Part shown: piece by piece, positions 40,094 through 64,000 of the stretch
How the letters are laid out: each line of letters starts with the position of its first letter
How positions within the stretch are numbered: the stretch's first letter is position 1
Virus record (IMG/VR): IMGVR_UViG_3300020011_000226
Location: 53,541-117,540 of that record
Length of the DNA stretch: 64,000 nucleotides
Direction: 5' to 3' (one strand)
Source: a virus
Lineage: Duplodnaviria > Caudoviricetes
The notes under the pieces: generated by a model
What the model was told of the DNA's origin: nothing
Databases searched by the model: none
Seen by the model: the letters and a program-made list of their open reading frames with translations, nothing else
Made by a program: the position numbers and the translations under genes

Positions 40094-43000
40094 CTACACC
40101 CTCACCCCTTCTCTTTCAGCTTCTAATGCAAGTCCTTTCTCTATCAGTCCTCTATAATCAATATGATGTTCATTAAGCCAATCCAGTAATTTGGAACAAC
40201 TTTCTTCTCCAACAAAGACCGATTCATTTTTATCCCATTTTCTACTATCGGATATTATACCACCGTTGAAAATCTGAAAAAATCCTTCAAATTTATTTTC
40301 AAAATCTTTTTTCTCTTCTTCAGTAATGGAATCTATAGAGCGAAGGTATGGGACGGCACGATACTTTATGATACTATAAATTATACTCTGCGTCAAAGTC
40401 ATAGAGGTTCTACCATCTAATTCAAAATCATTTCCTACCTCTTGATTTTTCATTACTACTCCGTAAGGCAATCTAGCACAAAGATCCCTTAATAGAAGTT
40501 CCTTATCTTCTTGTGTCATAACTTTCTAATATCTTTTTTATTGTTTTTATAATATTCAATTAACCAATCAAGGTAATCAAGTCTTCCTGTAGACCAATCA
40601 CCTACTGGCCACCAATAACAAGATTCGTGATTATTATACGCTCCAAAATCAAAGACTTTTCTTCCACCAAATAATGGAAAATAATACTGAATAAATTCAA
40701 TAGAAGGATAAAGACCAGTCAATGGGCGTAAAGTACAAGCAATAGCATTACATAGACACTTATATCTACTATGATTTTCCCTTACAGCCATAAGTACATC
40801 AACCCTATAAATAGGTCGATGGAAAAGCTTCTTGAGTTTTAATTTTGTTGTTGCTTTCATAACTATTTCCTATACTTTTTATGATAATAACAATCAATCA
40901 TAATAAATGCAATCAAGAGTCCCCAATTAAACACTGGAGAAAAGAGTAAAAACAAGAAAAGCCAATCAGTAAAATCTATTCTATTACCTTTATAATAAGT
41001 CCACACTATAATAATTACAGTAGGCAATAACAATAATATTAACCATAATATTGTCATAACTATTCTTTTTATAGTCTATCAAAATCTTCTATTGTTGGTA
41101 TTTCTGGACGTTTCATTTCATCTACAAAGAAAAGAATTATTCCACAAATAAATGTTACCATTATAATAATAAATGTTTTCATAACTATTTCTTTTTAAAT
41201 ATTACTACTGAATCAACTGGAACATTACCCTCATAGGTAATTTTTAGTTCTGTCTTGCCTTGATATACATCAAGAGCTGTAGGAGTGGTTATAACTGTAT
41301 ATAATAACCACATCGACAATATAAATATGCCGATAAATATACTATTGAGTATTTTTATAGCCTTTTTTCCCATAATCTTATTCTCCTTTCATTTCTTTAC
41401 GATAATATTCTATAATTTCATCAACTTTAACTGTAAATTGCATTCCTGCTTTATCAGTATAAGTCTTAGCAGTACAAATGTTTTCTTTTAGCCACTTACA
41501 AGTTTCTTCAATCACTTCTTCTTTTACAATCTTAGCAACTTCTCTTACGTTATCAGGAGTGAGCCAAGGTTCAAAACCATAAATGTTCGCAGTAAGTGAT
41601 TTTGAGAGGTTACTACCACTCTTTGCATGTTGCTTAATAAATTCTTCTGCTTTGCTCATAGTTGTATTATTTACCCTCTTCTTTAGTACCGTATATTGTG
41701 AAACGAAGCTTATACCTACAGTCTGGGCAAATACACCGTCCACCAAGATTATAAGATTCTCTACTGTTAAAAGGCTTATTGCATTGATGGCAAATTATTC
41801 TATATTTAAGTGGTATTTTTTTATTCATAACTATTTTTTCTTAATATAGTTGTTTTTTAACAACCAAATAACCATTTCATAAGCTGCCTCTATGAGATTA
41901 TCGTAGTATTGTGTAGCATGAGCATACGTGTCAAATTGATAACCATCCCAATGTCTTAATATAGGATATTCTTTTGGATAATCTTTATATTTAATCATAG
42001 GCATAGCATCAATAAGAGCTCCGACAGACCAACAAGGGAGATAATCAAACACACGTTCCTCACCTCTTTCTGCTAAATCATCTTTAATAAAAGGAGACCC
42101 CAGAACAGTACTTCCATCATCCCTATGTAACAAATATTCCATATCAGCAGTATTAGGGTCAAGACCCAACTCTAATAATTTCTTGGACTGTTCTATAGAC
42201 GTATAATATTTCATAATGATTCTCCTTTTAATTCTCTAACTTTAGCTTCAAATAGTGCTCTTACAATAGTTCCCTTTCCCAGTGCTGCTATAAGAGGTTC
42301 AAACTCTTTAAGCATAGCATAAGCACCATCTTCAAAATTTGTTTGTAATCTACATGCTTTAGCGGCATTAATTGCTGCCATTTCTTTTATAGTCATAGTT
42401 ACTCTCCTTTAAGTTGTTGTTCTTTCTGCCACCGAGCACCTGCCTTGAAAGCAATAGCAATATCATCTTCCCAGTCATCACCGCCATTGCCGTTATCATT
42501 TGATGTGTAGTCGGTGGCATACTGCCTTGATACTTCCTCCAAGTTCTCACTTGCAGGCTCTTCGGGAAGAGAATTGATGAATCTTAAAATATCATCTAAT
42601 GCCATATCTTGCCCACATTTAACATCTAATTCATATTGAGCATAGTCTTTGTCATCAGATGGCTTATAGACTTTTTTCAGCCTTGCAATCTCAACTAAAA
42701 TCTTATCTTTAATATTCATAGTTACTCTCCTTTAAGTTGTTTTAAATCATTATAAAGAGATTTCAACAATTTGTTATGAGGATAATATTCTTGTACAAAC
42801 ATACCCAATGCTTCAACTTGTTCTTCACTTGGTTTCCAATGAGACTGAGGACGAAGGGATTTGAGCCAATCAACGCACCTATCTCTGTCAATTTGCACAC
42901 AAAATCCTGCACGTAAAGCACTATCTATAATATCCTTAGATAGTCTGATACATTTCTCATCCTCTTCACTCCATTCAGCAGACTTCTGTTCAAACATTCT

Positions 43001-44760
43001 ACGAAAGCTGTTATCTTGAAGATTCTTTTTAATTTGCTCTTTATCCACAACTTTCTTCAATTCTTTATTATCAGTATCCCATCTTCGTACATATTTTGAA
43101 ATTTTTGGAAGATATGTATTAAGAAAATCAATAATATTAACTCCAGTAGCTTTACCATTTTCTAAAATTTTGTAAGGAAATAATAAACCCTCAGAAACTC
43201 CATCTTTAAGTTCACTTATTTCTTTATAACCTTCCTTACGTTTGGCATTTATTCTACTTTGAAGTTCGTTAACATTCTTCTTAGTGATAGTAATATGCTT
43301 TGTATGAAGATTTCTTCCAACAAGACCATATTGAATATCTATATATTTTATAGGGCCATCAGGAGAATCTTGACTTATAATTTCTTTAGCAGACCATACG
43401 AGAGGTTTGTCATTACTAGACCTTTTATAAAGTGTTATCATAATTCTATTATATTTAAAATAATACTTTTATCATTTTCTGCCTTAAAACATTCAAAAGC
43501 TCCTTTTTTAGAAAAAGATTAATAATACGTATTACCGTATTTATTCGGAGGAATAAAATATACTATTATATATTCATTCATATTCTTTCTAATTTAATTT
43601 CAACTTTAATAGGCTCATCTCTATAACAAAGATTTTTAAATTCAGGAAATTCTTCATCTTTAAGTTCCATGTAATCCTCACTCATCCAAACTTTAAGCCT
43701 ATCATTATTTTCTGGAATATCTCTATGAAACCAAAGAGAACCATCTGCATCTCTAGCTACATATCCAATCATAACTTACTCTTTCTTTAATTTTTTACAT
43801 TCATTATAATAACCAATACTAACTTTAGGATTATCTTCACATTCTTCACAAAGAAAAGAATCGCGAAGAGGAACATTATACTTTTTACATTTCATGATTT
43901 AATCTTTAAAACCTCTGTCATCTATAATATCTAATTCTTTTAATAAAATATTATAAGACTTATCAGATAATTTACTGCCATAAATACCATCTCTTATATC
44001 AGCGTTAGTCCAAATATAATGAGAAGACTTTTCATCACTTATTAAAGCTATATTATGAATAGGAATAATAGTTCCATTTTCACTTCTAATACATTTAATT
44101 TTATCCATGATTTAATCTTTCTTAGGAGGTTTAATTTTAAAAGCTCATCCTCACTCTCTGCAAGTTGTTGAAATACAGCAAGTAGATATGATTTTCCAAT
44201 AGAACTTGCATTAGGATTATTATGCCATTCTTTTGCTCTTTCAAGAGCTTTGTCATAAGCTTTTGCTTTTTGCTCTGTTGTAAGTTCTTTCATAATTGTT
44301 TATTATTTATCTAAGTCGATAACTTTTTTATCCCAATGATATTTTAAGAAATACTCCAAGTGAATAAACCTACCCATAATTATTGGTTCTTCGCTGTAAG
44401 ACCAATCCATAGTCATAAGTGTTTCTCCACTTTCCGTGTCAATGATTGCATATATAAAGCATAATTCGCCATTGTTCATGTCCAACAACTTTTGTAGGTC
44501 TTTGGATTTATATAAAGTCATGCAATGGTTTTTACCATGTGAAGCATCAAAAAGAAACGCTTTTGCTTTTTCTTTATCCATAATCACAACATTTTACGTT
44601 CGTGTAATTTTAGTACCATCTCATAGCAAGCATCAATAGGGTTGCTTGTCTTAAATATTTCAGTACTTAGACTTTCTCTTGCGCCTACATAATACCTATC
44701 AGCATAATACATGATGCCGTACTTTTTATAAGCTTTCTTACGTAGTTTCTTTAATAATTT
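40094..44760 (-). other. AT-rich cluster of small accessory phage genes (e.g. 40094-40519, 40516-40860, 41831-42214, 42399-42719, 42722-43441, 43578-43772, 44303-44587)
   Basis: Densely packed short minus-strand ORFs of types common in Bacteroidota phages; visibly higher AT than the replication block. Confidence 0.7.
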
Positions 44761-49988: not shown

Positions 49989-50652
49989 TGTAATTCACCC
50001 ATGCCCTTGGGATTTGTTTTGGTATCTGGCACACCTGGTTTGCTGTTTGATGTTTGTTGTTTAAAGTGGACTGACAAGAAGTTACTGATGAATAGCTTTA
50101 TGTCAGTCAAGTACAAAGGAGGTGTAATTTGTAGGTGTTCCTCTATGTGTCTTGTAAGAAAAAAGAGAGTAGAGGGTAGTATAAGATGTATTCAATTGTA
50201 CTCAATTTTTGTGGAATAGCCAAAACTTTATGGTTAAAAATGATCTAAGCAAAGAATAAAGGACTGATATTTGTTAGGGTGGAATAGGAGAGAGGAGCAT
50301 AAACTATATAGTGTGATGAGGATTAAAAGTGTAATGCTATAGAAGATGAGGATTCTGAGGGTGAAATTTAGCTGTTGTTGAAGAGGGAGGTGGAGGGGTA
50401 TAAGCCGCTCCTTACATCCACATAATCAACTAAATATAAGCAAAAGCAATTAAGACTGTTAAAATTAACATTTGAATTGTTAAAGTGTTAATTAGTAACC
50501 TCCACAACTACAACCCACAACCCTCTTCTATGTGTCTTATTGCTTATATCTTAATTATATAAATAAGAAATACTAAAGGTTATTATTATATATCTTATCC
50601 TGTTATAACTTATTATTAACTTTGCATTGTTAAATATTAAAAGGATAACATT

Positions 50653-50952
50653 ATGAGACAAGAAAAACAAGATTATTGCTACCTGAACATTGAAAAGATG
50701 GTAGAGCTTTCCAGTAAGCTGGAAGGAAGTGAAATTAAAATGTTATTTGCCATCATCTACTGCATTAATAACAGTGATAGTAGCCTATTCCTCAATAATG
50801 CAGAAAGCAGGGCAAAAATTGCTGAAATGGGATTTTCTAAGACTCCTGAGAGATTCAGTGCTATACTTGGATCCTTGGTTAAGAAGGAGGTTATCAGAAG
50901 AGAAATTAATGGAGTTTATAGTATCTCAGAAGACCTGTTTATTGTTCCCTAA
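50653..50952 (+). CDS. Winged-helix / RepL-like small protein
   Basis: LxxLVKKEVIRRExNGVY wing motif; TAACTTTG promoter at 50617-50624. Confidence 0.7.
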   Translation: MRQEKQDYCYLNIEKMVELSSKLEGSEIKMLFAIIYCINNSDSSLFLNNAESRAKIAEMGFSKTPERFSAILGSLVKKEVIRREINGVYSISEDLFIVP

Positions 50953-51011
50953 ATAATATAATATAGGAGAAAAAAGTTAAAATGTTAAATACCAATAAGT
51001 TACAAAAAATC

Positions 51012-51095
51012 ACATCCTCAAATATGAGTAAAACATCCTCAAATATGAGGCAACTTGTATCAAATATGAGGAAAACTTCCTCAAGAAATGAGGAA
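51012..51095. repeat. Four iteron-like repeats with exact 21-bp period (core TCAAATATGAG)
   Basis: Cores start at 51018, 51039, 51060 and 51081; a fifth variant is at 51126. Confidence 0.85.
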
Positions 51096-51132
51096 AAGTT
51101 AATCATTTGATTGAGTAAATTATAATCAAGAT

Positions 51133-51594
51133 ATGAGTAAATACAGTACAAGAAGCGTTCATAGCGAAATAACTGACCCCAATACAGGAGAGATTAGAAG
51201 TTACACTGATAGAGTAGAAGTAGTCAAGAATGAAGTAGAGCCCTTCTTTCTGACTTATAGCAGGGAAATACTGGCTCTTTATGGCAAGTCCATATTTAAT
51301 GCGACTACCAAAGTGTTATGGAAGCTGTTGGAGATAGCTGAGTATAATACAGGCAAGGTATATGTTACTACCGAAAGAAGGAACAGTATCATGGATGCTT
51401 GTAGTATCTCTAGAGCCTCTTATGACAGAGCTGTCAGAGATTTGGTAGAAGCGGAGATTATCAAGAAGGACGGAAATACTTATACCATTAGACATGATAT
51501 GTTCTGGAAGGGAGACAGGGATGAGAGGAGAAAGTTGTTAAATGCCAGGCTTAGAATATCATTCACTCCAATGTTTCCTGAATCTGAGCAGTAG
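51133..51594 (+). CDS. RepL-like replication/HTH protein
   Basis: DPNTGEI N-terminus, HTH ISRASYDRAVRDL, and Y.I...MFWKG, typical of the RepL family. Confidence 0.7.
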   Translation: MSKYSTRSVHSEITDPNTGEIRSYTDRVEVVKNEVEPFFLTYSREILALYGKSIFNATTKVLWKLLEIAEYNTGKVYVTTERRNSIMDACSISRASYDRAVRDLVEAEIIKKDGNTYTIRHDMFWKGDRDERRKLLNARLRISFTPMFPESEQ

Positions 51595-51721
51595 TCACTC
51601 ATTGCTCCCACTCACTTATTGCTCTCACATCTCCCGCAAAAAAAAATAAAGGCAGAGCCTCCCCATACCCAAGGGAAGCCCTGCCAGTCATTCTATTTAA
51701 CCCACAATGTCTGCCAGATGA

Positions 51722-52006
51722 CTATGCGTCAATTCTGGTGATGTCACCACTACCATCGCGGTGTAAGGTGAGAATCTTGGCCTTGGTAAGGTCTACAGAG
51801 TCACCCACACCCAGCGTAGACTGGTTGCTCAGTGGGATATAGGTCTGCCCACCAGAAGCCATGAAGAAACATACTGACTTGCCATAGTCAGAGCTGACCA
51901 CCTCAGCCTCCTTGACGGCTGCTACTTCCTCTGCCTCAAAGCTGCGCGAACCTACTACCTTCCATGAACCACCGTAGACCTGTAAACCTGCAAAAATGTT
52001 ACTCAT
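51722..52006 (-). CDS. Early small beta-rich protein, paralog 2 of 3
   Basis: VVSSDYGxSVCFFMxxGGQxYIPLS is shared among the paralogs; terminator at ~51648-51685. Confidence 0.85.
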   Translation of the reverse strand: MSNIFAGLQVYGGSWKVVGSRSFEAEEVAAVKEAEVVSSDYGKSVCFFMASGGQTYIPLSNQSTLGVGDSVDLTKAKILTLHRDGSGDITRIDA

Positions 52007-52241
52007 AATTGTTTGTTGTTTAAAATGTTAATAATGTTGTTTGTTGTCTGGAGACTGCACTGCTAGCCGTACAACCTCAAATACAGGGGAAGTGTAATTG
52101 GTTCTTCATCCTCTATGCCCCTCATTGCTCCCACTACTGCCCTCAAAAAGTTAATCTGTTGCTGTTGTCGATGGGACTTTGGGATAAAAAATAAAAGGCA
52201 GACAGCCGAAGCCATCTGCCTTAAATGCTTAGAGGATTATA

Positions 52242-52523
52242 CTAAAGCTCTACTCTCAAGATAGGATTACTGCCATCTCTCTCCAGTGTGAGGACAGTCA
52301 GTTTATTAACATCCACAACATCCCCAACCTGGGCCACAGAATCTCTACTGAGCGGGATGTACTGCTGACAGCCAGAGGTCATGAAGAAGCAGCATGATAA
52401 GCCATAAGAGCTGCTGACCACTTTAGCTGATAAGATACCTGACAACTCTTCCTCATTGAGAGGACGAGAGTTTGTCACTGCATACTTAGTTGCATACTTG
52501 GTTAAACCTGCGAAAATATTCAT
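52242..52523 (-). CDS. Early small beta-rich protein, paralog 3 of 3
   Basis: Same motif; terminator AAGGCAGA/TCTGCCTT at ~52195-52222. Confidence 0.85.
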   Translation of the reverse strand: MNIFAGLTKYATKYAVTNSRPLNEEELSGILSAKVVSSSYGLSCCFFMTSGCQQYIPLSRDSVAQVGDVVDVNKLTVLTLERDGSNPILRVEL

Positions 52524-52589
52524 AATTCTAATTATTTAAAGGGTTTATAATTCTATTTAATGTGTTCTCATGGTATCAGACTCTTCAGG

Positions 52590-52892
52590 CTACTTCTTCT
52601 CCTTGTAAGCCTCTGGATTAATCTGCTTGCCAATCTCAGGAACATACTGTCTGTATTCCTTGCCAGTCTTCTTGGAGACTTTCTTGATGAAAGCCTTGCC
52701 AGTAGATGAGAGATACACAGGATACACTACACCTTTGTTATCAGTGTAAGTGTACTGAGTCTTGGTCTCCTTACCAGCAGGCTTCTTGTTGGAAACTTGG
52801 GTAAAGGTATTACCCTGACGTGACACACTCTGAGCATAGATGCCCACATTCATACTGAGCAGCATCATGGCTGCAATGATTAACTTCTTCAT
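52590..52892 (-). CDS. Secreted small basic protein
   Basis: Sec signal peptide MKKLIIAAMMLL...AQ. Confidence 0.75.
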   Translation of the reverse strand: MKKLIIAAMMLLSMNVGIYAQSVSRQGNTFTQVSNKKPAGKETKTQYTYTDNKGVVYPVYLSSTGKAFIKKVSKKTGKEYRQYVPEIGKQINPEAYKEKK

Positions 52893-53192
52893 AATTGTTT
52901 TGTTTTATAGGTTATACATGTGTCATCACATAGTCAGCTTTCTTGATAAGGTCAGTATTTCCTGTAGCCTTAATCTCATCATAGATAGCATGAATATCGC
53001 TCCAGTCCTCAGGACCGCCATTGCAAGCTGAAATCAGCTCATTGATTAAATTTCTCATAATTACTTTATCATTTAATTGTCCAACTTGAATTTCCATAAA
53101 CCAGCTTATAGTTACTGGCAGCTTGGTAAGAGGTGAACCCACCCCTCACCAAGTTTCCGAGAGAATCAAATACTCTGTACATAGTACTAGTA

Positions 53193-53465
53193 TTAGTAAA
53201 TCTTCATGACCACTTTAAGGCCATCACCTCTTTGTTTATACTCTTCAAAGGATAGCTTGAGAGTCCAGTCACCACCAAGAGTAACAACCACTTGCCTTGG
53301 ATTCTTGGCAACCTTGATTCTAGGTCTCTTAGCTTTTGGTTTGAATCCTCTGGCAATAAGAGCCTTCAGTTCCTCACTCTCATGATTCCTCATGAGTTCC
53401 CTTCTTCTCTCATTGAAGTCTGAGCATCCTGCCCATTCTCCACGGTAAATACCATTCTGCTTCAT
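53193..53465 (-). CDS. Hypothetical early protein
   Basis: 90 aa ORF. Confidence 0.6.
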   Translation of the reverse strand: MKQNGIYRGEWAGCSDFNERRRELMRNHESEELKALIARGFKPKAKRPRIKVAKNPRQVVVTLGGDWTLKLSFEEYKQRGDGLKVVMKIY

Positions 53466-53478
53466 TGTCTTATAGTTT

Positions 53479-53745
53479 TTAGTAACACCAATAATAGTTT
53501 CTTATCTCATCCTTGGTAATAACTGCTTCAGGATCACAGTCAATATTATCCACATAGTCATAGTAGATTTCCTCAGCATCATTGCCAAGGTTATCCATCA
53601 TGATTCTACAGATGTCTGACAGCATGCAAGCTGCCTGATAGTCCTTAGAACCTACATTCTCCTTGGAATTTCTTCCAACCTGATAGCTCACCGCGCTTGT
53701 TGCAAGTAGCAATGCTACAGCTGCCAAAACTTTAATTTTCTTCAT
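53479..53745 (-). CDS. Hypothetical exported protein
   Basis: N-terminal signal-like segment. Confidence 0.65.
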   Translation of the reverse strand: MKKIKVLAAVALLLATSAVSYQVGRNSKENVGSKDYQAACMLSDICRIMMDNLGNDAEEIYYDYVDNIDCDPEAVITKDEIRNYYWCY

Positions 53746-53894
53746 ATTATTTCGAGTAAATAGTTATCCAATACATAGTCCAGAGTAACCACATGATGCC
53801 AAAATAACCCAGAATGAGGATTATGAATCCCCAATCTGAGTCAAAGAACCAGCATAGTATCTTCTCAATTCTCTTCATTGTCTTAGTAGTTTAA

Positions 53895-54293
53895 TTAGCA
53901 GTACATTGCTTCCCATGCATCACAGTATGCATCATACATAGCTTCATCTTCTGCCTCATAGCATTCAGCAAGATAGTTCTCTGACAGCTCATAGAACTCC
54001 AACATACACATCAAATCTTCAGTGGTAATGCCCATATCCTCACAGAACGTCTTGCCTTTCCAGAAGGCAACCAATGAGGTATAGTCACTCACATACATAG
54101 TTGAGGTAATCTTGTCTTTGTCCCATAGGGCAATACTTAACAAGGTTTCCTCCTCATCATCACATTCACCAATGGTGTCCAGCTCAAGAGCCTGCTGGTT
54201 TCTTACCATTTGTTTGATTGTCTCAAAGTTCACCGTCTTCCAGTTGAGCTTCTCTGCTATCATCTTGATAGCCTTGAATTCAGCTTTGTTCAT
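53895..54293 (-). CDS. Acidic hypothetical protein, first gene of the leftward operon
   Basis: 132 aa with an acidic C-terminus. Confidence 0.7.
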   Translation of the reverse strand: MNKAEFKAIKMIAEKLNWKTVNFETIKQMVRNQQALELDTIGECDDEEETLLSIALWDKDKITSTMYVSDYTSLVAFWKGKTFCEDMGITTEDLMCMLEFYELSENYLAECYEAEDEAMYDAYCDAWEAMYC

Positions 54294-54470
54294 AATACTT
54301 TTATTTAATAGGGTTTGTTAATGTTGTGACAGCTGGTATCTCCTGCCTTGTCTCAGCTACTGAGCTGATGTAACTCCTGCTATAGATATAGCTGGAGACA
54401 GTCAGTCTGCAAAGACCCAGGGGGGGATAGACCCCACACTGTCAAAGACAGGGGGAGGTGTGATATGTTA

Positions 54471-54676
54471 TGTTCCCCCTTTACACATACCAAAAAAATT
54501 TCGACCTGTACGGTTGAAAAATTTTCATAGAAATACTATCCTTCCCTTTTATACATGCAGTTCAAATTATCAAAACACTATCCTCCACTTTTATACATAC
54601 CTAATATTTTTCCAAAATGTTCCCCCTTTATACATATCACGATTTTTTCTATAATATCCTCAGCTTTTACATACTC
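54471..54676. repeat. Five degenerate direct repeats (core roughly CC..CTTTTATACATAC) at the divergent strand switch
   Basis: Copies at ~54471, 54535, 54577, 54618 and 54654. Confidence 0.7.
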
Positions 54677-54791
54677 TGCATTTTTCCTAAATTCCCTCTG
54701 GTAACTTTTTTATTTCTTCCAGCTTAGCCTTCCTTACAATAGCTTTTATACTGAAGAAAATAGCCTTTTCTTATAGTACTTTTGCATTGAC

Positions 54792-55178
54792 ATGGGAAGA
54801 GTACAAGAACATAATAAAGAGATCAGGACTTCTGCTGAGTCAAGAGCCAGAGAGATGCAGACATGGCCATCTCCCTTAGAGGAGAAGATGCAAGTATTTC
54901 TGGATAAGCATGGTATTTACTATGAGTTCCAGAAAGTATTCTATATTACTGATGATAATGGCTGGATAACAAGATACTATATAGCAGACTTCTATCTGCC
55001 CCAGAAGAAGGTTATCATCGAGGTGGATGGCAAGTTCCATGATAAACATAAACAGCATGACAGGGATAGGACTAGAACTATTCAGGAATACTACCATGGA
55101 ATAGAGGTTCTAAGGTATAAATGGAAAGACATGTCTGATAAGGAAGTTCTATCTGATTTATTGCACAGGGTAGCATAA
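54792..55178 (+). CDS. DUF559/Vsr-like endonuclease
   Basis: YIADFY....IIEVDG..H...DxxRT; TACTTTTG promoter at 54777-54784. Confidence 0.85.
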   Translation: MGRVQEHNKEIRTSAESRAREMQTWPSPLEEKMQVFLDKHGIYYEFQKVFYITDDNGWITRYYIADFYLPQKKVIIEVDGKFHDKHKQHDRDRTRTIQEYYHGIEVLRYKWKDMSDKEVLSDLLHRVA

Positions 55179-55229
55179 TAGTTTGGTGTTCTCGTTTATT
55201 ATTTGTACCTTTGCAGCAAAGTTATTTAT

Positions 55230-56717
55230 ATGGACAACTATAAGACATCTTATTATCATGAGTCTCTTGTTCGGACAGAATGGGATAGTCTTCCTTTAAT
55301 GGAGAAGATGAATATTATGAGGTCATGTGTCAGGAATGGAATCCTCAACATGGAGGACATCAGGACTGCATATAGTAATTATGTGTCAGGAAAAAATATC
55401 TTTGATGGTATTTCTCTTGATGCTCCTGATGTAGAAGGTTTTGCCAATTTTTTGGCTGGGGGAGGTAAGACTAAAAAGGAAGAGCTAGAGGTTACTTATG
55501 GCCGGCCTTACTATTCCTATGATAGTCAGGGTAGGAAGGTGGATAATACTCTCAATTATAATGCTACTATTCCTGAGGTGGTAATTTATGGTAGAAATAG
55601 GAAGCCTGATTATATTGAGAGGGCTAAACAGGAAAGGCAAAGACAGGGACAGATAGCCAAAAGTTATTTTACTGCTGCTCCATCGGTAACTAATATTGCT
55701 AAAGGCATAGAAGCTTTGGTAAATTCTTCTCCGTTAGTAACAACAGCTTCTTCTGAGAATCCTTTTGCCTTTATCGGCGATGCTCCAAGTGGTAGCGTGA
55801 AAGGCAATCCTCTGAATAGTACAACAAGCAATCTGTTAAAATGGTTAGGGAAACCTCTTACGTATAGGCCTAAAAATCCTTTGTCCCAAGCTTCTATTGA
55901 AGATTTGGCTTTCAAAAAGATTGAAGGTACTGATAAATATATGTACCCAGGATTAGAGAGAATGCTATATTTATGGAAAGAAAAAGGCGCGGACTTAACT
56001 AGATTTGGGGTAGATGATTTAGATGATATATTTAGACTTAGAAAAGCCGCATTGGCAGAAAACGCACCTTATAGACATACTATTGCTAATAAGATAGGTG
56101 GAGAGTATCTGCTATCGGATTTTAGAGGCGGAGAAGAAGTGGGTAAGATAGATCTAGGGATAGATGCTTCTGGAAATACATTTATGGATAATATTCATAA
56201 TCTAACAAACTCTTACCCAAAAGGGGATCCAAGAAAAGTTCACGGTGTACAAAGAAGAGGGTTAAATTCTGCAATAGCTGTAGCCCAGTCTGAGGGTGGA
56301 GAAGGTGTTTTTTCTGGTAACCAGTTGCAATCTGCACCAAAACAATATCCTGCTATATTTGAACATCCAGAAAGGCAGGTGGTTGGGCAGGGATTTCATA
56401 CAAACGAAAAGATGGTTCCTGTTGGAGAATATGGAATGTTTGGAGGTCTCAGTGGCCCCAAAGAAGCCAAAAGTGTTGAGGAGCTTTGGGCCAATGGAGA
56501 TAAATCGCCCATGCAGCTTTTACCAGCTCCTGTGTGGAAATTAACCAAACAGTCTTTTTCAGCCCCAACCAAATCTTATTCCTTCAATCCACTAATAGTT
56601 GATAGTAATGGGAAAATGCATGTAGACTGGAATTCTGCTGATATATTTAAAGGGTTGGTCATACCCACATTATTCGGAACTACGTATAACCTTTTTGAAG
56701 ATAGTCATGACAAATAA
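55230..56717 (+). CDS. crAss-type FxxGG-motif protein with variable C-terminal domain
   Basis: FLAGGG and TIPEVVI motifs. The promoter TACCTTTG at 55206-55213 places the start at 55230. Confidence 0.7.
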   Translation: MDNYKTSYYHESLVRTEWDSLPLMEKMNIMRSCVRNGILNMEDIRTAYSNYVSGKNIFDGISLDAPDVEGFANFLAGGGKTKKEELEVTYGRPYYSYDSQGRKVDNTLNYNATIPEVVIYGRNRKPDYIERAKQERQRQGQIAKSYFTAAPSVTNIAKGIEALVNSSPLVTTASSENPFAFIGDAPSGSVKGNPLNSTTSNLLKWLGKPLTYRPKNPLSQASIEDLAFKKIEGTDKYMYPGLERMLYLWKEKGADLTRFGVDDLDDIFRLRKAALAENAPYRHTIANKIGGEYLLSDFRGGEEVGKIDLGIDASGNTFMDNIHNLTNSYPKGDPRKVHGVQRRGLNSAIAVAQSEGGEGVFSGNQLQSAPKQYPAIFEHPERQVVGQGFHTNEKMVPVGEYGMFGGLSGPKEAKSVEELWANGDKSPMQLLPAPVWKLTKQSFSAPTKSYSFNPLIVDSNGKMHVDWNSADIFKGLVIPTLFGTTYNLFEDSHDK

Positions 56718-57000
56718 AATAATAGCAACTCTTGAAGAAAGATATGCAAAAGCAGTGGTAGATAGTAAGGGTTACACTGTCTTTGAGCCCCTAGCTGAAT
56801 TCTACCTTGATATGCTTTGCTATGGCAGTACAGGAAGAGTTTTTGTAGAGAGACTGGAGACAGAACTGTTAAACTTGGGATTGCTCAAAAGCAAAATTAG
56901 TGCATGGAATGATCTTATTGACAATAGAGTTTGGGATGGCGATTTTAACAGAATGCTTTTTTATTTCTTCCGTATCAAAGAAAGAAACCCGTATCAATGA
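56707..57000 (+). CDS. Small protein overlapping the upstream stop (immunity-like)
   Basis: ATG at 56707 overlaps the end of the upstream gene. Confidence 0.6.
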   Translation: MTNKIIATLEERYAKAVVDSKGYTVFEPLAEFYLDMLCYGSTGRVFVERLETELLNLGLLKSKISAWNDLIDNRVWDGDFNRMLFYFFRIKERNPYQ

Positions 57001-57686
57001 CAATATTATCCTACGAAGAGTACCACGAAAGATATAATCAATTAGTGGCTAAAAGAAATGTAAATGCTATTATTGAATTTGAAAGAAACTACGGCTATAT
57101 GCTGGCAGATCCTATTTTTGAAAAAGAAAAGGCATGACAAATAGTAGTTATTATGGAATCTTGGATTGAGCAGATAAAGAAAAGAACAGTCTCTGACACA
57201 CTATATACAAAAAATATGGCCAGCTGATATTGTACAATATGTTTCAGGAACTAGAGTACCTGAGATTAAAATACTGGGGTAGTTCTGAGGATTACACTGA
57301 GGATATACGCAGGGTTATTCAGGTGTATAGTATTGACAATGAAATGACTATGCTGATGGGATTGCCTAAATTGATAAGCAGATACAAGACTATCTTTCCA
57401 GCAATGGGTCATTGTTAGGTTACCTAAAGCCCTATTTTGGTATGGAGGTATATTATGATGGGACTCAGTGCGTTTTGGTAGAACAAATAGAAGAGCTTTT
57501 TAAAAGATTAGAGCGAGCTTTTCTTTGGTGAGACTACCCTATTATATTATACTAGTCAAAGCAGCCGAAGGCTGCGAGAGCCTATTGGTATATCCAACAG
57601 AGTTAGGGCAGTATTTCTTCTGTGAATATTGCTATCTTAGCTTCAAAAAACATATTATGATTAATTATTGGTATATATTATTGATG

Positions 57687-57748
57687 TTAGAGTAATTTTT
57701 AATCTGCCGTTAGAGGGATTTTTAACATTTCATTAGAGGGATTTTTAA
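57687..57748. repeat. Three direct repeats TTAGAG(TA/GG)ATTTTTAA, 23-bp period
   Basis: Start at 57687, 57710 and 57733. Confidence 0.75.
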
Positions 57749-57829
57749 TGCTGAAAATTCAGAAAATCCCTTTATTTCTTGGTAGTTTCAGAGATTTTTC
57801 ATACCTTTGTAGTGACAAATATAATTTTT

Positions 57830-58408
57830 ATGGTTTACTACAAATATCTCTTCCTGCACATGGAAGATTTAACTCCTAACGAAGGGCTGGTATATTCAGA
57901 ACTGCTCCTCAACTCTTTAGTCTCCAACGAAGACTACAAGACAGGTGAACTACTATATATAGATAAGGCAAAAGACGAACTGGCCAACTTTCAGTTATTG
58001 CAGTGGGGAGAAGAAGTTACCTACTATGAACTGAAAGTACCCATTCTGATAAAGAGAACTGAGATGACTTTCCCTACAGTTAAAAAGGCTCTTGGGGAAT
58101 TAACTCGGAAAGAGTATATCAAAGGTGGTTATATTAAATGTCCACTTAATTTGCTGCGAGATGGCTACATAAAAATTCCAAACGGAACAGGTGCTAAAGG
58201 AAGGCAACTTGTCTTTTATGGTTTTTTGCTTGACAGATCCAGGAGATACAAAGGCATTATAGACACTTGGGCCTACAGGTTCAGTGAGCTTTGTGGTGTA
58301 GATGCTGATGATGCTTACTTTATGATACAGCAGCTAAAAAAGAAAGGGTTAGTGGAGAGACTTGAAGATGGCAGGCTACAGATAAATAAGCCTGTTCGGA
58401 GAAAATAA
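57830..58408 (+). CDS. Double winged-helix DNA-binding (Rep-like) protein
   Basis: Two wHTH-like segments (TFPTVKKALGEL..K.YI; IQQLKKKGLVER); promoter TACCTTTG at 57802-57809. Confidence 0.7.
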   Translation: MVYYKYLFLHMEDLTPNEGLVYSELLLNSLVSNEDYKTGELLYIDKAKDELANFQLLQWGEEVTYYELKVPILIKRTEMTFPTVKKALGELTRKEYIKGGYIKCPLNLLRDGYIKIPNGTGAKGRQLVFYGFLLDRSRRYKGIIDTWAYRFSELCGVDADDAYFMIQQLKKKGLVERLEDGRLQINKPVRRK

Positions 58409-58467
58409 AAAGGAAGAAACTTCACAGCCTCTTCCTTAGGGACAAATATAATTTTCAGTACTCAAAT
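58403..58467 (-). ncRNA. Small antisense RNA candidate with GUGA-loop terminator
   Basis: Has its own TACCTTTG promoter (58474-58481), 15-nt complementarity to the 5' UTR of the 57830 gene, and a hairpin at 58410-58437 plus a U-run. Confidence 0.6.
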
Positions 58468-58653
58468 ATGATGCAAAGGTAAGAATAAATTGTGATACCT
58501 GCAAGAATTTCTGGGAAATTTTTAGGAATGAGCACTTGATTCTTATAACAATTTATATACCAACGTGTTGCAGATTTTTGTGGTAATGTTTTGCTAATAA
58601 AAAGTTTCTTCGTACCTTTGCAGCTGAAAAGAGATATGTTAAACTAAAACTGC

Positions 58654-59010
58654 TTGGTAATGAAGGGGTTAAAGGAGTATATAGCAAAACATGGATTTCA
58701 TTTTACTGAGGAGCTGGCTTACAAGGCTGCTGGTGGTAAGAAATGGAGTGCTGACAAAATAGCTGTAGCAGCCCAGAAGAGAGTGTATTATAATGTAACC
58801 CGCTCTACTCTGGGAGATATGACCTACTCAACCAATGCTATTTATTTCTGTTGCAACTCTTCAGGCTATAATACTCTTGCCAGATGTATCACAATCATGC
58901 TTAATGATGTAGGCTGCTTTGAGTACTTTGGCTATGGAGGTATCTTTAGTCTATGGTTAGAGACAATGCATAGGCATGGGGAAGAGTTTGACTTTACCCA
59001 GTTCATCTAA
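58654..59010 (+). CDS. Hypothetical Bacteroidota phage protein
   Basis: YIxxHGxHFTxxL motif; promoter at 58613-58620. Confidence 0.7.
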   Translation: MVMKGLKEYIAKHGFHFTEELAYKAAGGKKWSADKIAVAAQKRVYYNVTRSTLGDMTYSTNAIYFCCNSSGYNTLARCITIMLNDVGCFEYFGYGGIFSLWLETMHRHGEEFDFTQFI

Positions 59011-59186
59011 ATATTTTCCTTAGAGTATTGGTACCCAGGTGAGAATCAAGTACTTTTGCACTGAGAAATTTTCGGTCCATACGCAATGTGGGAGTACCTT
59101 CCGTCTGGGTATTCCCACTTTTATTTTTACTTCTAAGGAGAAATAAGGGCTTTATTAAGGTCTTAGGTATTTCCTTATATCCTTTT

Positions 59187-59194
59187 TATCTTTG
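59187..59194 (+). promoter_or_regulatory. Bacteroidota -7 promoter (TATCTTTG) for the portal gene
   Basis: TAnnTTTG ~29 nt before the ATG. Confidence 0.7.
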
Positions 59195-59222
59195 CAATCA
59201 GTAAGATAAAAAGATTGTTTTT

Positions 59223-61637
59223 ATGGCAAATAATTTAATGGGAGGATTTCCAGTACAACAGTTGCCTTTTAGCAAGAAGACCAAACTGTGGAGAACCCAA
59301 TGCGTTGATTTTGGGGATCGACACAGCATTATGCATCACCATGTGGCAAGGAAGTCGTGGCAAAAGATGAAAATCAACTATGACTTGCTCAATGGTATCT
59401 TGCACATGGAGGACTTGAAGGCACTTGTCAACCCTTATAACTTGGATGCGTCTTTCATTCCAGATAATATTCAGCACTATAGCATCATCAATTCCAAGCT
59501 GAACGTACTGAGGGGTGAGGAGGCTAACAGGCTGTTTGACCCAAGAGTGGTAGTCACTAATCCTGGGGCAATCTCTTTGATGGAGGAGGAGAAGAACAGA
59601 CAGGTTAATATGGCTATACAGCAGTTGGTTCAGGACTATAGTCAGTCTGAGGAGGATTTTCAGGAGGAGCTGAACAGGCTGAACAACTATTTCAAGTACC
59701 AGTACCAAGACAAAAGAGAGGTAGAGGGTAACTATTTTTTGAACCATTATATCAAGGAGCTGGACATCAATGAGAAGTTCAACATGGGTTTTGTTGATGG
59801 CTATGCGGTTGGTGAGGAAGCCTACCAGTGTGATATAGTCGGAGGAGAACCTACCTTTGAGAAGATTAATCCGAGGGAAATGAGAGTGCTGATGTCTGGC
59901 AATTCTAATATGATAGAGGATGCTGACATGATTATCATTGAGGGGTACAAGAGTCCTGGAGCAGTCATTGATGCCTACTGGGATCAGCTTTCCAAGAAAG
60001 ACATAGAGGCCATTGAGACTGGTTCTGGTGCTGCATATAGTACTCCTGCCGACTCTATGGGAAACATAGATGCAAGAGTTGGCAATCCCTTGAGGTCTGC
60101 CGTACAGCTTAATATGATGGGAGGACAGTGGCAGGCTGGTGAGTATGTTATGACATCAGCAGACCTGTTTGAAGATGATTCCCTGAGCATCCTGACGCCC
60201 TATGACCTGAATGGCAATGTGAGGGTGTTGAAGGTCTACTGGAAGTCAAGGAGGAAAATCAAGAAGGTAAAAAGCTATGATCCAGAGACAGGTGAAGAGC
60301 AGTTTGATTTTTATCCTGAGACCTACAGATGCAGAGAGGACTTGGGTGAAGAAGAGCAGACCTTCTGGGTTAATGAGGCATGGGAAGGCACTAAGATAGG
60401 TGCAGACATCTATGTTAATATGAGACCAAGGCCTGTACAGTACAACAGGATGAGCAATCCTTCAAGATGCCACTTTGGTATTGTGGGCAGCATATATGCT
60501 ACCAATGGCGAAGAGCCTTATAGTATGGTGGACATCATGAAGCCCTATGCCTACTTTTATGATATTATACATGACAGGCTGAACAAGACACTTGCCAAGA
60601 ATGCAGGAAAACTCATCAAAATGGACTTTGCCAAAGTGCCTAAGGGATGGGATGTGGACAAATGGCTACATTTCATCATGGTCAATGGTGTGGTAGTAGA
60701 GAATTCATGGAATGAGGGTGATGTTGGTGCAGCTACTGGAAGGCTGGCAGCATCCTTGAATAATGCTTCTAATGGTGTGGTGGATGCTTCTTTGGGAACA
60801 GAAATACAGAGTTACATCTCCCTGCTTGAGTGGATTTCCAATAAAATAGGTGACCTTCCTGGTATATCAAGACAGAGGGAAGGGCAGATTTCCAATAGAG
60901 AGACTGTTGGAGGTGTAGAGAGAGCAACCTTGCAGTCCAGCCATAGCACACAATGGTTGTTTACCTTCCATGATAGTGTGAAGAAAAGATCCTTGGAGTG
61001 CTTCTTGGAAACAGCCAAGATAGCTTATAGAGGCAGGAAGATTAAGTTTGACTACATCATGAACGATGGTTTCAAGAAGACTATTGAGATTGATGGGGAT
61101 GATTTTGCTGAGTGTGACTATGGCTTGGTTGTAGATACTAATAATGATGTTCAGGAGCTTAACCAGAACCTTGGCCAGTTAGCACAAGCAGGCTTGCAGA
61201 ATGACAAGATGAACTTCTCAACCTTGATGAAGATATATACCACTAAGTCAGTTGCTGAGAGAATGAGGCTTATAGAGAACTATGAGGAACAGGTAATGAT
61301 ACAGCAACAGCAGGCTCAGCAGATTCAGCAGCAGCAATTCCAACAGCAGCTTGAACAGCAGGCACAGCTTGAGAGAGAAAAGTCTGAGAGAGAATACCAG
61401 ATGCATACTGAAAAGCTTCAGACTCAGATACTTACTGCGAGGATTAATGGGCAGGCCGAGGCAGATAGGCTCATCCTGATGAACCATGATAATGATGAAG
61501 CCAATACTCTTGAAAGGGAGAAGATTGCTGAGGATGCAAGGCAGTTTGATAGAAGATTGGAGTTTGACAAACAGAAGCTTAAGGCAGATACAGCTGTCAA
61601 GGAAAAGCAGATTGCCAAGAGTAACAGTAAAAATTAG
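59223..61637 (+). CDS. Portal protein (crAss-like)
   Basis: 804 aa; FPxQ.LP..KK, INYDL.NG, GISRQREGQI..RETVGGVERA; Q-rich coiled-coil tail. Confidence 0.9.
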   Translation: MANNLMGGFPVQQLPFSKKTKLWRTQCVDFGDRHSIMHHHVARKSWQKMKINYDLLNGILHMEDLKALVNPYNLDASFIPDNIQHYSIINSKLNVLRGEEANRLFDPRVVVTNPGAISLMEEEKNRQVNMAIQQLVQDYSQSEEDFQEELNRLNNYFKYQYQDKREVEGNYFLNHYIKELDINEKFNMGFVDGYAVGEEAYQCDIVGGEPTFEKINPREMRVLMSGNSNMIEDADMIIIEGYKSPGAVIDAYWDQLSKKDIEAIETGSGAAYSTPADSMGNIDARVGNPLRSAVQLNMMGGQWQAGEYVMTSADLFEDDSLSILTPYDLNGNVRVLKVYWKSRRKIKKVKSYDPETGEEQFDFYPETYRCREDLGEEEQTFWVNEAWEGTKIGADIYVNMRPRPVQYNRMSNPSRCHFGIVGSIYATNGEEPYSMVDIMKPYAYFYDIIHDRLNKTLAKNAGKLIKMDFAKVPKGWDVDKWLHFIMVNGVVVENSWNEGDVGAATGRLAASLNNASNGVVDASLGTEIQSYISLLEWISNKIGDLPGISRQREGQISNRETVGGVERATLQSSHSTQWLFTFHDSVKKRSLECFLETAKIAYRGRKIKFDYIMNDGFKKTIEIDGDDFAECDYGLVVDTNNDVQELNQNLGQLAQAGLQNDKMNFSTLMKIYTTKSVAERMRLIENYEEQVMIQQQQAQQIQQQQFQQQLEQQAQLEREKSEREYQMHTEKLQTQILTARINGQAEADRLILMNHDNDEANTLEREKIAEDARQFDRRLEFDKQKLKADTAVKEKQIAKSNSKN

Positions 61638-61648
61638 GAGGAGCAGCT

Positions 61649-61957
61649 ATGTTTAATTTCAAAAAGCTGGTAGTCAAATACCTTAAGGAGGTTGCAGAAA
61701 AGATAGAGGCAGGCACTTCTGAGATAACAGAATCCCAAGCTGTGGATATTCTCAGGATAGTTGCCCATGAGGTACTGACTAAAGAACAGGCCTGCAACTA
61801 CCTTAATATGTCGAGAAGCAAGTTTGATGGTTATGTCAGGGAAGGTATTATTCCTAAAGGTAGGAAAACTACTGGTTCAAATGAGCTGAAATGGTATAAG
61901 GATGAACTGGATACTGCTGCCTATAAATTCCAGAATGCCAAAAAAGTGGGAGGGTGA
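61649..61957 (+). CDS. HTH_17/excisionase-like DNA-binding protein
   Basis: LTKEQACNYLNMSRSKFDGYVREG.IPKG. Confidence 0.75.
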   Translation: MFNFKKLVVKYLKEVAEKIEAGTSEITESQAVDILRIVAHEVLTKEQACNYLNMSRSKFDGYVREGIIPKGRKTTGSNELKWYKDELDTAAYKFQNAKKVGG

Positions 61958-62056
61958 TTTTCTGATTATGATAGCACTTTCTCATATACTGTATCCTGAA
62001 AGAGTACCCTCAGAGAATTGATAGAGACGTGGAAGTAACATTTAAATAGGTTAATT

Positions 62057-62668
62057 ATGAAGCAAGTAACATGTTGGCTGGTGATAGTGGCTATAGTTCT
62101 GCTGGCAGTTGTTCACGCAGAATGGCAACAGGTTAAACATGCAAATAGCAAGTGGGAGACAGCAGAAGCCAATGTTAAGGCTTATGCTGCACAGCTGTCT
62201 GAGTCAGGCAAGAAGAACACAGCTTTACAGCTAACTGTAGATCAGTTGGGCTACCTAAAGGATTCAGTCCTCCAAGAGCTTGATAACACAAGGAAAGAAC
62301 TGGAAGTTAAGGATAAGAACCTTAAGGCCCTTCAGTCTGTGTCTTCCTGTTTCAGCAAAAAGGACTCTATTATCCTCAGGGACACCATATTCAAAGACCC
62401 TGAGTTTGCCATGGATACACTGCTGGAAGATAGTTGGTACAGCCTGAAGCTAGGACTTAAATATCCTTCTGTGGTTACAGTAGAACCAGAGTTTAAGAGT
62501 GAGAAACATATCATAGTCTCCAGTAAGAAGGAGACTGTTAATCCCCCGAAGAAGTTCTTTCTTCTAAGATGGCTGCAAAAGAAACATTTGGTGCTGCATG
62601 TTGATGTGGTTGAGAAGAATCCTTATGTGAGTGAAGAGAAGAGTGAGTATGTTGAGATAATCAAGTAG
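62057..62668 (+). CDS. Membrane-anchored coiled-coil protein (Rz/i-spanin-like)
   Basis: N-terminal TM helix, coiled coil, and a KKFFL.RW...NPY tail. Confidence 0.6.
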   Translation: MKQVTCWLVIVAIVLLAVVHAEWQQVKHANSKWETAEANVKAYAAQLSESGKKNTALQLTVDQLGYLKDSVLQELDNTRKELEVKDKNLKALQSVSSCFSKKDSIILRDTIFKDPEFAMDTLLEDSWYSLKLGLKYPSVVTVEPEFKSEKHIIVSSKKETVNPPKKFFLLRWLQKKHLVLHVDVVEKNPYVSEEKSEYVEIIK

Positions 62669-62671
62669 GGC

Positions 62672-62857
62672 ATGGAGGGGTTATTAATAATCGGTTATAT
62701 TGTAGGAGCACTGGTCACCTATTATATTATAAGCAGGCACTTTGACAGGGTGGAGATAGAGGCAGGCTCTGTTAGTACTGCCTGTATTATGTGGCCTCTG
62801 ACCTTCCTTATAGTAATATTACTGTGTATGGAGGGTCTATTCATAAAGAATTCGTAA
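62672..62857 (+). CDS. Small membrane protein
   Basis: Two hydrophobic segments. Confidence 0.55.
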   Translation: MEGLLIIGYIVGALVTYYIISRHFDRVEIEAGSVSTACIMWPLTFLIVILLCMEGLFIKNS

Positions 62858-62935
62858 TAATTAGTTGTAATCATACAATAGATTTGTTTTTCATTGATCA
62901 TTTTTTCTCCCGTCTTTGTGAAAAGGTGGGAGTTT

Positions 62936-64000
62936 TTATATATCCAAACTGGCTATGGCATCCACCACAGTCTCATCAAGCAGTTTGGCATACACTTGCT
63001 CAGTTATCTTGGTAGATGAGTGTCCGCATATCTTCGAGACTATCTGCATGGGAACCCCCTCATTTAATAATAAGGTAGCACCTGTATGCCTTGCCCAGTG
63101 AGTAGAGAGAGGCTTGTCTATCCCAGCAGCCTGTGCTACCACTTTAAGGTACTCATTGTATTTCACATTGCTTATGATGGGCAGCTTTCCTTCATACTTA
63201 TGCAGGATGTCCAAGGCTGGGGATAGCAGGGGAATGGTAAAGGTCATATTGGTCTTATGTCTATTACCCACATACACACTCATGCCCTTCACCTCCTGAA
63301 TCATCCTACTGTTAAAGTCCCTCAGGTCTGAGTAGCTGAGGCAGGTGTAGGTCTGGAAAACAAAGACATCCCTGACTCTGCTGATACATTCTGTGGGCAT
63401 AGGCAGGGTTTTGAGCCTCCTAAATTCCTCTGGAGTCAGACACCTTCTAATACCATTAGTAGATTTATCCTTGTCTATATTCACCCATCTGTAGGGGTTC
63501 TTTTTCATGTATCCTGCATCTATGGCATCCAGTATGAAACTGTTTAGGAATCTGTGGTAATTATTCCATTTACTGTAGGGCTTCATTCCTGTATCAGCCA
63601 AATACTTATCGTAGGAGATGATACTTCTCTCATTAATGTCTTCAAAGCTCTTGATTTTGCCCCACTTAGTAAACAGTCTGATGAATCTGTTATACCTTTC
63701 CTGACTGTCTGGCTTCTTACCATATTTCCTCACTACAGCTCTTTGATTACAGAACTCCAAGAAACTGATTTTAGGTTGATTCATTTTTTCCAGCTCTTCA
63801 GGAATAGTATTAATATCAACCTCCCCCTCCTGCATCATCCTGAGTATAATCTGCCTGACATTGGAAAGCATGGTATCCAGAGTCTGACTAATCGGCATGA
63901 TGTCTGGACAGTTGACGATCTTCCCGTTCTTCCACTGAGTAGAGTAGAGCTTGATACCAGTTGAGATAATCTTCTGTTTGTAGTTATAGGTGATTCTCAT
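62936..64000 (-). CDS. Tyrosine recombinase/integrase (Bacteroidota Arm-SAM-Int type), probably 5'-truncated by the window
   Basis: RIT...STGI arm domain, TCLSYSDL box I, HWARHT, GH...T..VY. Confidence 0.9.
   Translation of the reverse strand: MRITYNYKQKIISTGIKLYSTQWKNGKIVNCPDIMPISQTLDTMLSNVRQIILRMMQEGEVDINTIPEELEKMNQPKISFLEFCNQRAVVRKYGKKPDSQERYNRFIRLFTKWGKIKSFEDINERSIISYDKYLADTGMKPYSKWNNYHRFLNSFILDAIDAGYMKKNPYRWVNIDKDKSTNGIRRCLTPEEFRRLKTLPMPTECISRVRDVFVFQTYTCLSYSDLRDFNSRMIQEVKGMSVYVGNRHKTNMTFTIPLLSPALDILHKYEGKLPIISNVKYNEYLKVVAQAAGIDKPLSTHWARHTGATLLLNEGVPMQIVSKICGHSSTKITEQVYAKLLDETVVDAIASLDI

Follow-up and report, generated by a model that had tools for sequence, protein, structure and literature searches.

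A winged-helix gene with the same word at either end

The window, i.e., the whole 64-kb stretch of DNA analysed here, is the right-hand part of a 117,540-bp virus record. Its portal gene (59223-61637; phrog_6547, E 7e-138) encodes a protein 53-54% identical to the portals of cr126_1, cr116_1, cr128_1 and IAS virus, and on account of this homology we placed the phage among the crAss-like phages (Crassvirales), the most abundant phages in the human gut. The locus considered here consists of a gene for a winged-helix protein and the sequences at both of its ends, with the following features:

57686..57774, plus strand: three iteron-like direct repeats with a 23-bp phase (57687-703, 57710-726 and 57733-749), upstream of the winged-helix gene
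57763-774: inverted partial copy of the iteron-like repeat, upstream of the winged-helix gene
57779..57809, plus strand: predicted Bacteroidota-type promoter of the winged-helix gene, TTG-N20-TACCTTTG
57814..57828, plus strand: copy 1 of the word, proposed target of the small RNA (sRNA), accounting for nearly all of the 5' UTR predicted for the winged-helix mRNA
57830..58408, plus strand: winged-helix gene, 192 aa, two winged-helix domains, with weak TrmB/HTH_36/MarR and DnaD-like (phrog_186) signals
57835..57848, plus strand: additional site of weaker pairing, within codons 3-7, with the 5' end of the predicted sRNA as its complement
58402..58437, minus strand: predicted intrinsic terminator of the sRNA, a 12-bp hairpin (58437-58410) and a U-rich run, overlapping the last codons of the winged-helix gene
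58441..58455, minus strand: copy 2 of the word, the complement of which is the single-stranded sRNA seed AAAAUUAUAUUUGUC
58456..58470, minus strand: 5' segment of the predicted sRNA, its start assumed from the promoter position at about 4 nt past the -7 box (+/-3 nt)
58474..58504, minus strand: predicted sRNA promoter, TTG (58504-02)-N20-TACCTTTG (58481-74)

An alignment of the protein family fixes the start codon of the winged-helix gene at ATG 57830, the start named in the original prediction, which is conserved across the family. Sequence searches with the 192-aa product returned weak signals: its Pfam matches (TrmB, HTH_36 and MarR_2) were all below cut-offs, its PHROG match was to the DnaD-like helicase loaders of phrog_186 (E 2e-5), and a profile search of PDB sequences gave marginal HTH matches at best. 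The AlphaFold2 model (pLDDT 87) has two winged-helix domains. In a fold search, the C-terminal domain retrieved many winged-helix regulators at Z ~7-9; the RepA_N "MDR initiator" 4pta was matched at Z 8.6 over 92 residues, a score that generic winged-helix regulators equal. Judging from the model, the product would be a DNA-binding protein encoded beside iteron-like repeats, and a role as initiator (Rep) is plausible. All homologous loci have a comparable triple repeat upstream, and by sequence these repeats form 3-4 classes. Among GenBank phages we found neither a DNA nor a protein match to the locus, and no homolog of the winged-helix gene.

The 15-mer GACAAATATAATTTT occurs exactly, as originally claimed, at 57814-57828 (copy 1) and at 58441-58455 (copy 2), both times on the plus strand. 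These are its only two occurrences in the entire 117,540-bp record even with one mismatch allowed, and the match between them grows to 19 nt with one mismatch (57810-28 vs 58437-55). In 60 first-order Markov simulations with the dinucleotide make-up of the window, about 0.07 exact 15-mer direct repeats less than 1 kb apart were expected per window, with a maximum of one, and the repeat is therefore real and beyond chance. Copy 1 begins 4 nt past the -7 box and stops 1 nt short of ATG 57830, so that the word makes up almost the entire predicted 5' UTR, and copy 2 sits 32 nt past the winged-helix stop codon. Other repeats of the window include a 26-nt exact direct repeat (42393-42418 and 42716-42741), which spans the region of ribosome binding and start in each of two neighbouring genes on the minus strand (42399-42719 and 42722-43441), and further exact 15-mers at 40855/41177, 43893/44106 and 51598/52121.

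Around copy 2, we predict from the minus-strand sequence a promoter, a transcription start and a terminator that together would delimit a small RNA unit. A promoter box had been proposed at 58474-81 and a terminator at 58410-37. The former could be extended by a TTG 20 nt upstream (58502-04), and the latter was recovered as a hairpin of 12 pairs with a GUGA loop, followed on the minus strand by a U-rich run. Full TTG-N19-21-TAnnTTTG sites number just nine in the 64-kb window, the minus-strand site among them. About 33 nt between this promoter and the hairpin are predicted to be unpaired, including the complement of the word, and the seed is unpaired in both the MFE and the centroid structures. 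The hairpin folds at -15.7 kcal/mol on the minus strand (z = -2.5) vs -9.5 to -10 kcal/mol on the plus strand, and its two G·U pairs exist on the minus strand only. A role of the hairpin as a plus-strand terminator is not supported, given the weaker fold and missing U-run on that strand, and no plus-strand terminator was found between the winged-helix stop codon and the RNA promoter. Rfam covariance models gave no match at E<=1 over positions 50000-64000, and a covariance model of the RNA unit detected no second copy elsewhere in this genome.

Several observations concern neighbouring or similar elements. Codons 7-13 of the winged-helix mRNA (57849-57867) can form a hairpin, CTCTTCC...GGAAGA, with arms of the same sequences as those of the sRNA terminator (GGAAGAG.../...TTTCTTCC). 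This style of one purine-rich and one pyrimidine-rich arm recurs across all loci, and the likeness may be due to chance or may provide an extra contact. Five of the nine full promoter matches cluster in 55183-59058, suggesting that this is the part of the genome that host RNA polymerase transcribes. A short ORF-less plus-strand unit (59028-59128), directly preceding the portal gene, comprises a full TTG-N-TACTTTTG promoter (59028-58), about 30 nt, a strong 12-bp terminator hairpin (59088-59118) and a U-run; no complementary target of at least 10 nt was found for it elsewhere in the window. Outside the window, G000:C1:47642-47715 (the same as L018:1501-1574) gave a weak 30-bit match to the sRNA covariance model. 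It holds a plus-strand hairpin with a U-run and a stem close to that of the sRNA terminator, preceded by TTTTGACAAAAG, and is probably just a terminator of similar style.

Conservation and co-variation in related phages

A search of 5.8 billion proteins yielded 35 related protein clusters. Protein-guided scans of the IMG/VR, JGI metagenome and GTDB genome collections gave no further relatives, and all comparative loci therefore stem from 12 exact-protein look-ups, which gave us the DNA of 12 distinct homologous loci in independent metagenomes. The homologous winged-helix proteins are 54-76% identical to that of the window. One architecture is common to 11 of the 12 fetched loci, which with the window makes 12 loci that are related to one another and not fully independent.

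On the side of the gene start, this architecture consists of the plus-strand TTG-N20-TAnnTTTG promoter (conserved at the motif level in 12/12 loci), a spacer of exactly 4 nt after the -7 box (12/12), GACAA, a variable A/T-rich word and, 1-6 nt on, the ATG. On the downstream side, the hairpin is followed by the same word, 17-27 nt, the complement of TAnnTTTG and, exactly 20 nt further, TTG; the minus-strand promoter is thus kept in all 12 loci with both boxes and their spacing, and so are the seed and the terminator of the unit. The covariance model of the RNA unit scored 52-81 bits at every locus having the architecture. In the RNA, the invariant GACAA reads UUGUC and immediately precedes the terminator on its 5' side; it may have been kept by constraints on the transcription start, as a nucleation site or as a motif bound by a protein. 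At the one remaining fetched locus (L012), the winged-helix gene lacks a separate promoter and UTR, and downstream of it the RNA unit is missing as well. An upstream Cys-rich HNH-like segment is here (L012:1251-2072) joined to the winged-helix protein, by in-frame fusion or by translational coupling, and iterons are absent.

The word that follows the invariant GACAA falls into at least eight types among the loci (e.g., GACAAAAAATAAATT, GACAAAAATAAAATA, GACAAAAATTAATAT, GACAATAAATAATTCGCA and GACAAATGTAATT). At word positions 6-15, identity between loci is 0.53-0.57, whereas comparing the two copies of each locus gives 105 agreements in 120 positions (~88%). When the longest complementary word was determined for every UTR against every RNA unit, the cognate pairs summed to 154; 20,000 permuted pairings had a mean sum of 97 and a maximum of 138, so that none reached the cognate sum, and the cognate sRNA ranked first to third of 12 for every UTR. 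Co-variation of the two copies in homologous loci, which the original prediction had proposed as a check, was thus found. Seed matches are imperfect at three loci (L009, L010 and L015), with a 1-nt bulge or just 10 nt exact. Transitions between the copies were G·U-compatible in eight cases and incompatible in three, and this bias in the direction of wobble is suggestive at most, as the counts are few and the difference is not significant.

Two groups of loci show a more complex history. L009 and L010 have identical 3' gene ends and sRNA units together with different leaders and N-terminal protein halves, and this shared downstream half and differing upstream half indicate recombination within the winged-helix gene. 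Both leaders pair with the shared sRNA only via a 1-nt bulge, and the L009 leader fits the L003 sRNA (16 nt) better than its own. The minus strand of L013:1-73, at the contig end and upstream of a DUF559 gene, carries a second intact sRNA-like unit with a TTG-N20-TATCTTTG promoter, a seed and a G·U-containing terminator (65 bits to covariance model R1). The leader that its seed complements is of the L003/L009 type, GACAAAAAATAAATTC, whereas the leader of L013 itself is no exact complement; the unit may represent a paralog, or its RNA may be directed against a related phage.

The strand on which the downstream unit functions can be read from its hairpin, which in 11 of the 12 loci folds more stably as minus-strand than as plus-strand RNA and in all 12 is followed by a U-run on the minus strand. 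Over the loci, the hairpin holds 25 G·U pairs on the minus strand vs one on the plus strand, and these pairs indicate that it is selected as minus-strand RNA. In the model-fitted alignment, double-sided changes occur in 8 of the 10 modelled stem pairs, a count to be read with the fitting of this alignment to the structure and its inclusion of some weak matches.

The winged-helix ORF passes through the hairpin into copy 2 in 8 of the 12 loci, which means that the winged-helix mRNA must overlap the RNA gene there, and it stops before the hairpin in the other four. Since the hairpin and the word are kept whether the ORF stops or reads through, they are conserved as nucleic acid and not as protein, and the coding sequence appears to overprint the RNA gene at the hairpin and copy 2. 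The read-through ORFs (58402-58455 and homologous loci) have variable Lys/Gly-rich C-terminal tails (e.g., KKGK...) that are dictated by the RNA structure. A coding role of copy 2 was rejected, as these tails are not conserved as protein and four loci stop earlier; its pseudo-initiation region was likewise rejected as coding, with the ATG lost or a stop reached after 2-4 codons.

The resemblance between the two ends of the gene extends beyond the word. Copy 2 is a degenerate 35-40-nt direct duplicate of the UTR and the first ~8 codons, perfect in the UTR part and marked by indels and loss of the ATG or frame in the part corresponding to codons 1-8. Because the whole initiation region is duplicated, the 5' end of the sRNA can also pair with codons 3-7. 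In comparison with shuffles, this pairing reached p <=0.02 in L003, L008, L013 and L015, was marginal in the window (57835-48; p ~0.05) and was absent in about half of the loci. The 15-nt pairing originally proposed is thus exact over its 15 nt and understated in extent, leaving out the 5' part of the RNA and its contact with codons 3-7. Whole-duplex energies averaged -23.7 kcal/mol for cognate vs -16.7 kcal/mol for non-cognate pairs, and the UTR-only duplexes are modest (-10 to -21 kcal/mol) because the seeds are A/U-rich. No other non-self site in the window offers the seed as long a match as the UTR does (15 nt, vs 13 nt for the runner-up).

Proposed antisense control of initiation and its alternatives

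From the anatomy, conservation, co-variation and strand asymmetry observed at these loci, we infer that the RNA is transcribed, pairs in vivo, represses its target and has a biological role. Specifically, we consider it likely that an antisense sRNA of 65-70 nt blocks translation initiation of the winged-helix mRNA. The antisense reading had been put forward in the original prediction, and the conserved unit, the co-variation of seed and UTR and the G·U bias toward the minus strand all support it at the level of sequence. Host RNA polymerase would transcribe the non-coding RNA of 65-70 nt from the minus strand, from ~58470 to ~58402 and convergently with the winged-helix gene. Its seed would remain unpaired between the 5' end and the terminator hairpin and present an exact complement to the A/U-rich leader (57814-28), and the RNA would also pair, more loosely and variably by locus, with codons 3-7. 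This pairing would cover the region that ribosomes of Bacteroidota need free for a start independent of Shine-Dalgarno sequences, such that synthesis of the winged-helix protein would be repressed; decay of the mRNA may be promoted too. As the mRNA probably reads through the RNA gene, there would be full complementarity at the mRNA 3' end and mutual interference of transcription, both of which probably add to the repression. The RNA gene itself would appear to have arisen by partial direct duplication of the initiation region of its target and the gain of an antisense promoter.

A different view is that both words are DNA sites for a sequence-specific protein, either the winged-helix protein or another phage regulator, and that the small transcript is incidental. 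Binding at the +1 of the gene promoter and again downstream could then serve autoregulation, looping or a roadblock. This would agree with the DNA-binding fold of the gene product, with the overlap of copy 1 and the predicted transcription start, and with the invariant GACAA, which could serve as a recognition core. The word, however, is not a dyad, has no more copies in the genome and varies in sequence and length, such that the protein and both sites would have to change together. It is also unlike the iterons, the same iteron class being accompanied by different words, and its distance to the RNA promoter varies from ~17 to 27 nt, which makes an operator for the neighbouring protein unlikely. 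Finally, protein binding does not account for what surrounds copy 2, a minus-strand promoter that is conserved and a terminator with G·U bias. The protein operator, already named as an alternative in the original prediction, is thus improbable on the sequence evidence.

We consider it very improbable that copy 2 is what a partial tandem duplication has left behind, without function and kept alike by gene conversion or as a recombination substrate, with promoter and terminator motifs that serve something else, such as ending leftward transcription. Copy 2 does align with the UTR and the first ~8 codons as a degenerate direct duplicate, the identical downstream half of L009 and L010 shows that recombination occurs in the region, and concerted evolution through recombination between the two copies is possible. 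Gene conversion should, however, homogenise the whole duplicate, yet the UTR word alone is exact, and the homology is very short for such exchange (15-40 nt at a distance of 630 bp). The arrangement is moreover older than the divergence of proteins 54-76% identical to that of the window, yet the match between the copies has persisted. It would also be an unlikely coincidence for a promoter, an unpaired seed and a terminator to have come to lie so exactly about copy 2 in 12/12 loci.

About as improbable is a small RNA that acts mainly in cis, through convergent interference or pairing with the mRNA 3' end, or that is directed at host mRNAs, with the 5' UTR match being secondary. The OOP RNA of lambda, which pairs with the 3' end of cII, offers a parallel for action in cis. 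Overlap of the mRNA with the RNA gene is required in the 8 of 12 loci in which the ORF enters copy 2, and the missing plus-strand terminator between stop codon and RNA promoter points the same way. Complementarity from overlap is automatic, however, and does not explain why the seed is tracked by a UTR word 627 bp away, and the rank of the UTR as best non-self target in the window (15 nt vs 13 nt) speaks against a secondary match. Target-site duplication, the other alternative of the original prediction, was ruled out because all loci share homologous flanks around both copies, with a word that differs and co-varies.

Known antisense systems and meaning for crAss-like phages

In layout, the locus appears closest to par of pAD1, a type I toxin-antitoxin system (RNA I/fst mRNA and the RNA II antitoxin) with convergent promoters, direct repeats read in opposite directions and sequestration of the initiation site (PMC7472228). 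The likeness lies in predicted convergent promoters (here plus 57779-809 and minus 58504-474), in direct repeats whose opposite transcription creates complementarity over the translation initiation region, and in a terminator stem-loop region common to both RNAs (PMC7472228). Unlike in par, the terminator of our locus is not bidirectional, as the plus strand has no U-run and the ORF reads through in eight loci, and 627 bp separate the repeats, one at each end of the gene. The predicted target is a soluble-looking winged-helix protein of 192 aa instead of a 33-aa membrane toxin (an Fst/Ldr-type hydrophobic peptide), and the setting is a Bacteroidota phage without Shine-Dalgarno-based initiation.

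Co-variation between phages brings to mind c4 of P1 and P7. The c4 RNA is co-transcribed upstream of its target in the same operon and then processed, and the target operon encodes an antirepressor. The RNA described here differs in having its own predicted convergent promoter downstream of the target, and heteroimmunity would be deduced solely from the diversity of its seeds. In the immI immunity system to which c4 belongs, a small phage RNA pairs around the ribosome-binding region of a phage regulatory gene, and RNA and target sequences differ together between related phages, thereby defining specificity (PMC12197685). At our loci, too, RNA and target sequences change together between related phages.

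The countertranscripts of plasmid Rep genes (ColE2 RNAI, R1 CopA and the RNAI of pSK41-type RepA_N plasmids) are small RNAs complementary to the rep leader or initiation region. They are encoded opposite the leader itself as true cis-antisense RNAs, and changes in RNA and target sequence would create new specificity groups. A constitutive-looking promoter and complementarity to the leader of an iteron-associated, possibly initiator, gene are likenesses of the predicted RNA to these countertranscripts. It differs from them in lying at the other end of the gene, 627 bp downstream, where it would be transcribed from a duplicated copy of the leader. No minus-strand unit with promoter and terminator was found overlapping the leader, where the covariance model gave only a chance-level match of 22.8 bits.

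Short antisense RNAs have also been described from other phages, namely OOP of lambda and sar of P22, which are convergent with a regulatory gene and overlap its end or start (PMC12197685). Those RNAs act by cis overlap only, in contrast to our candidate, whose proposed target lies apart from it, at the far end of the mRNA, and co-varies with it. Among sRNAs of Bacteroides thetaiotaomicron, GibS and FopS have sigma-ABfr promoters and unpaired seeds and pair with translation initiation regions, and Bacteroides sRNAs repress at such regions without Hfq or ProQ, which are absent from the phylum (PMC11697453). The phage RNA would resemble them in its sigma-ABfr-type promoter, unpaired seed and predicted pairing with an initiation region. 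GibS and FopS are, however, chromosomal, multi-target and unrelated in sequence, whereas the RNA considered here is apparently dedicated to one phage gene. The action of the phage RNA would be akin to that of c4, OOP/sar and the countertranscripts, from each of which it differs in the place where it is encoded.

By analogy with these systems, the matched diversification of seed and target between related phages is the behaviour expected of a specificity determinant of the immunity or incompatibility type. As matched seeds diversify and an integrase lies near the module in relatives, a role in immunity, incompatibility or copy control would be the most attractive reading. More speculatively, and with considerable doubt, the seed/leader pair may be an RNA code of immunity or incompatibility in temperate or persistent crAss-like phages, by which silencing in each lineage is confined to the iteron-associated winged-helix regulator or initiator that it carries itself. 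If this were true, a resident phage would be able to silence an incoming relative by means of an extra sRNA gene with a foreign seed, such as that of L013:1-73.

Our literature searches turned up no account of a regulatory RNA whose target had been identified, either for crAss-like phages or for Bacteroidota phages at large. The locus thereby offers a small and directly testable RNA/target pair. It also suggests a route to a dedicated antisense regulator, in which the initiation region of the target itself is duplicated and then read backwards, and its seeds diversify like specificity determinants. Given its position amid host-type promoters, beside iterons and, in relatives, near an integrase, the locus could open up the control of replication and persistence in these phages.
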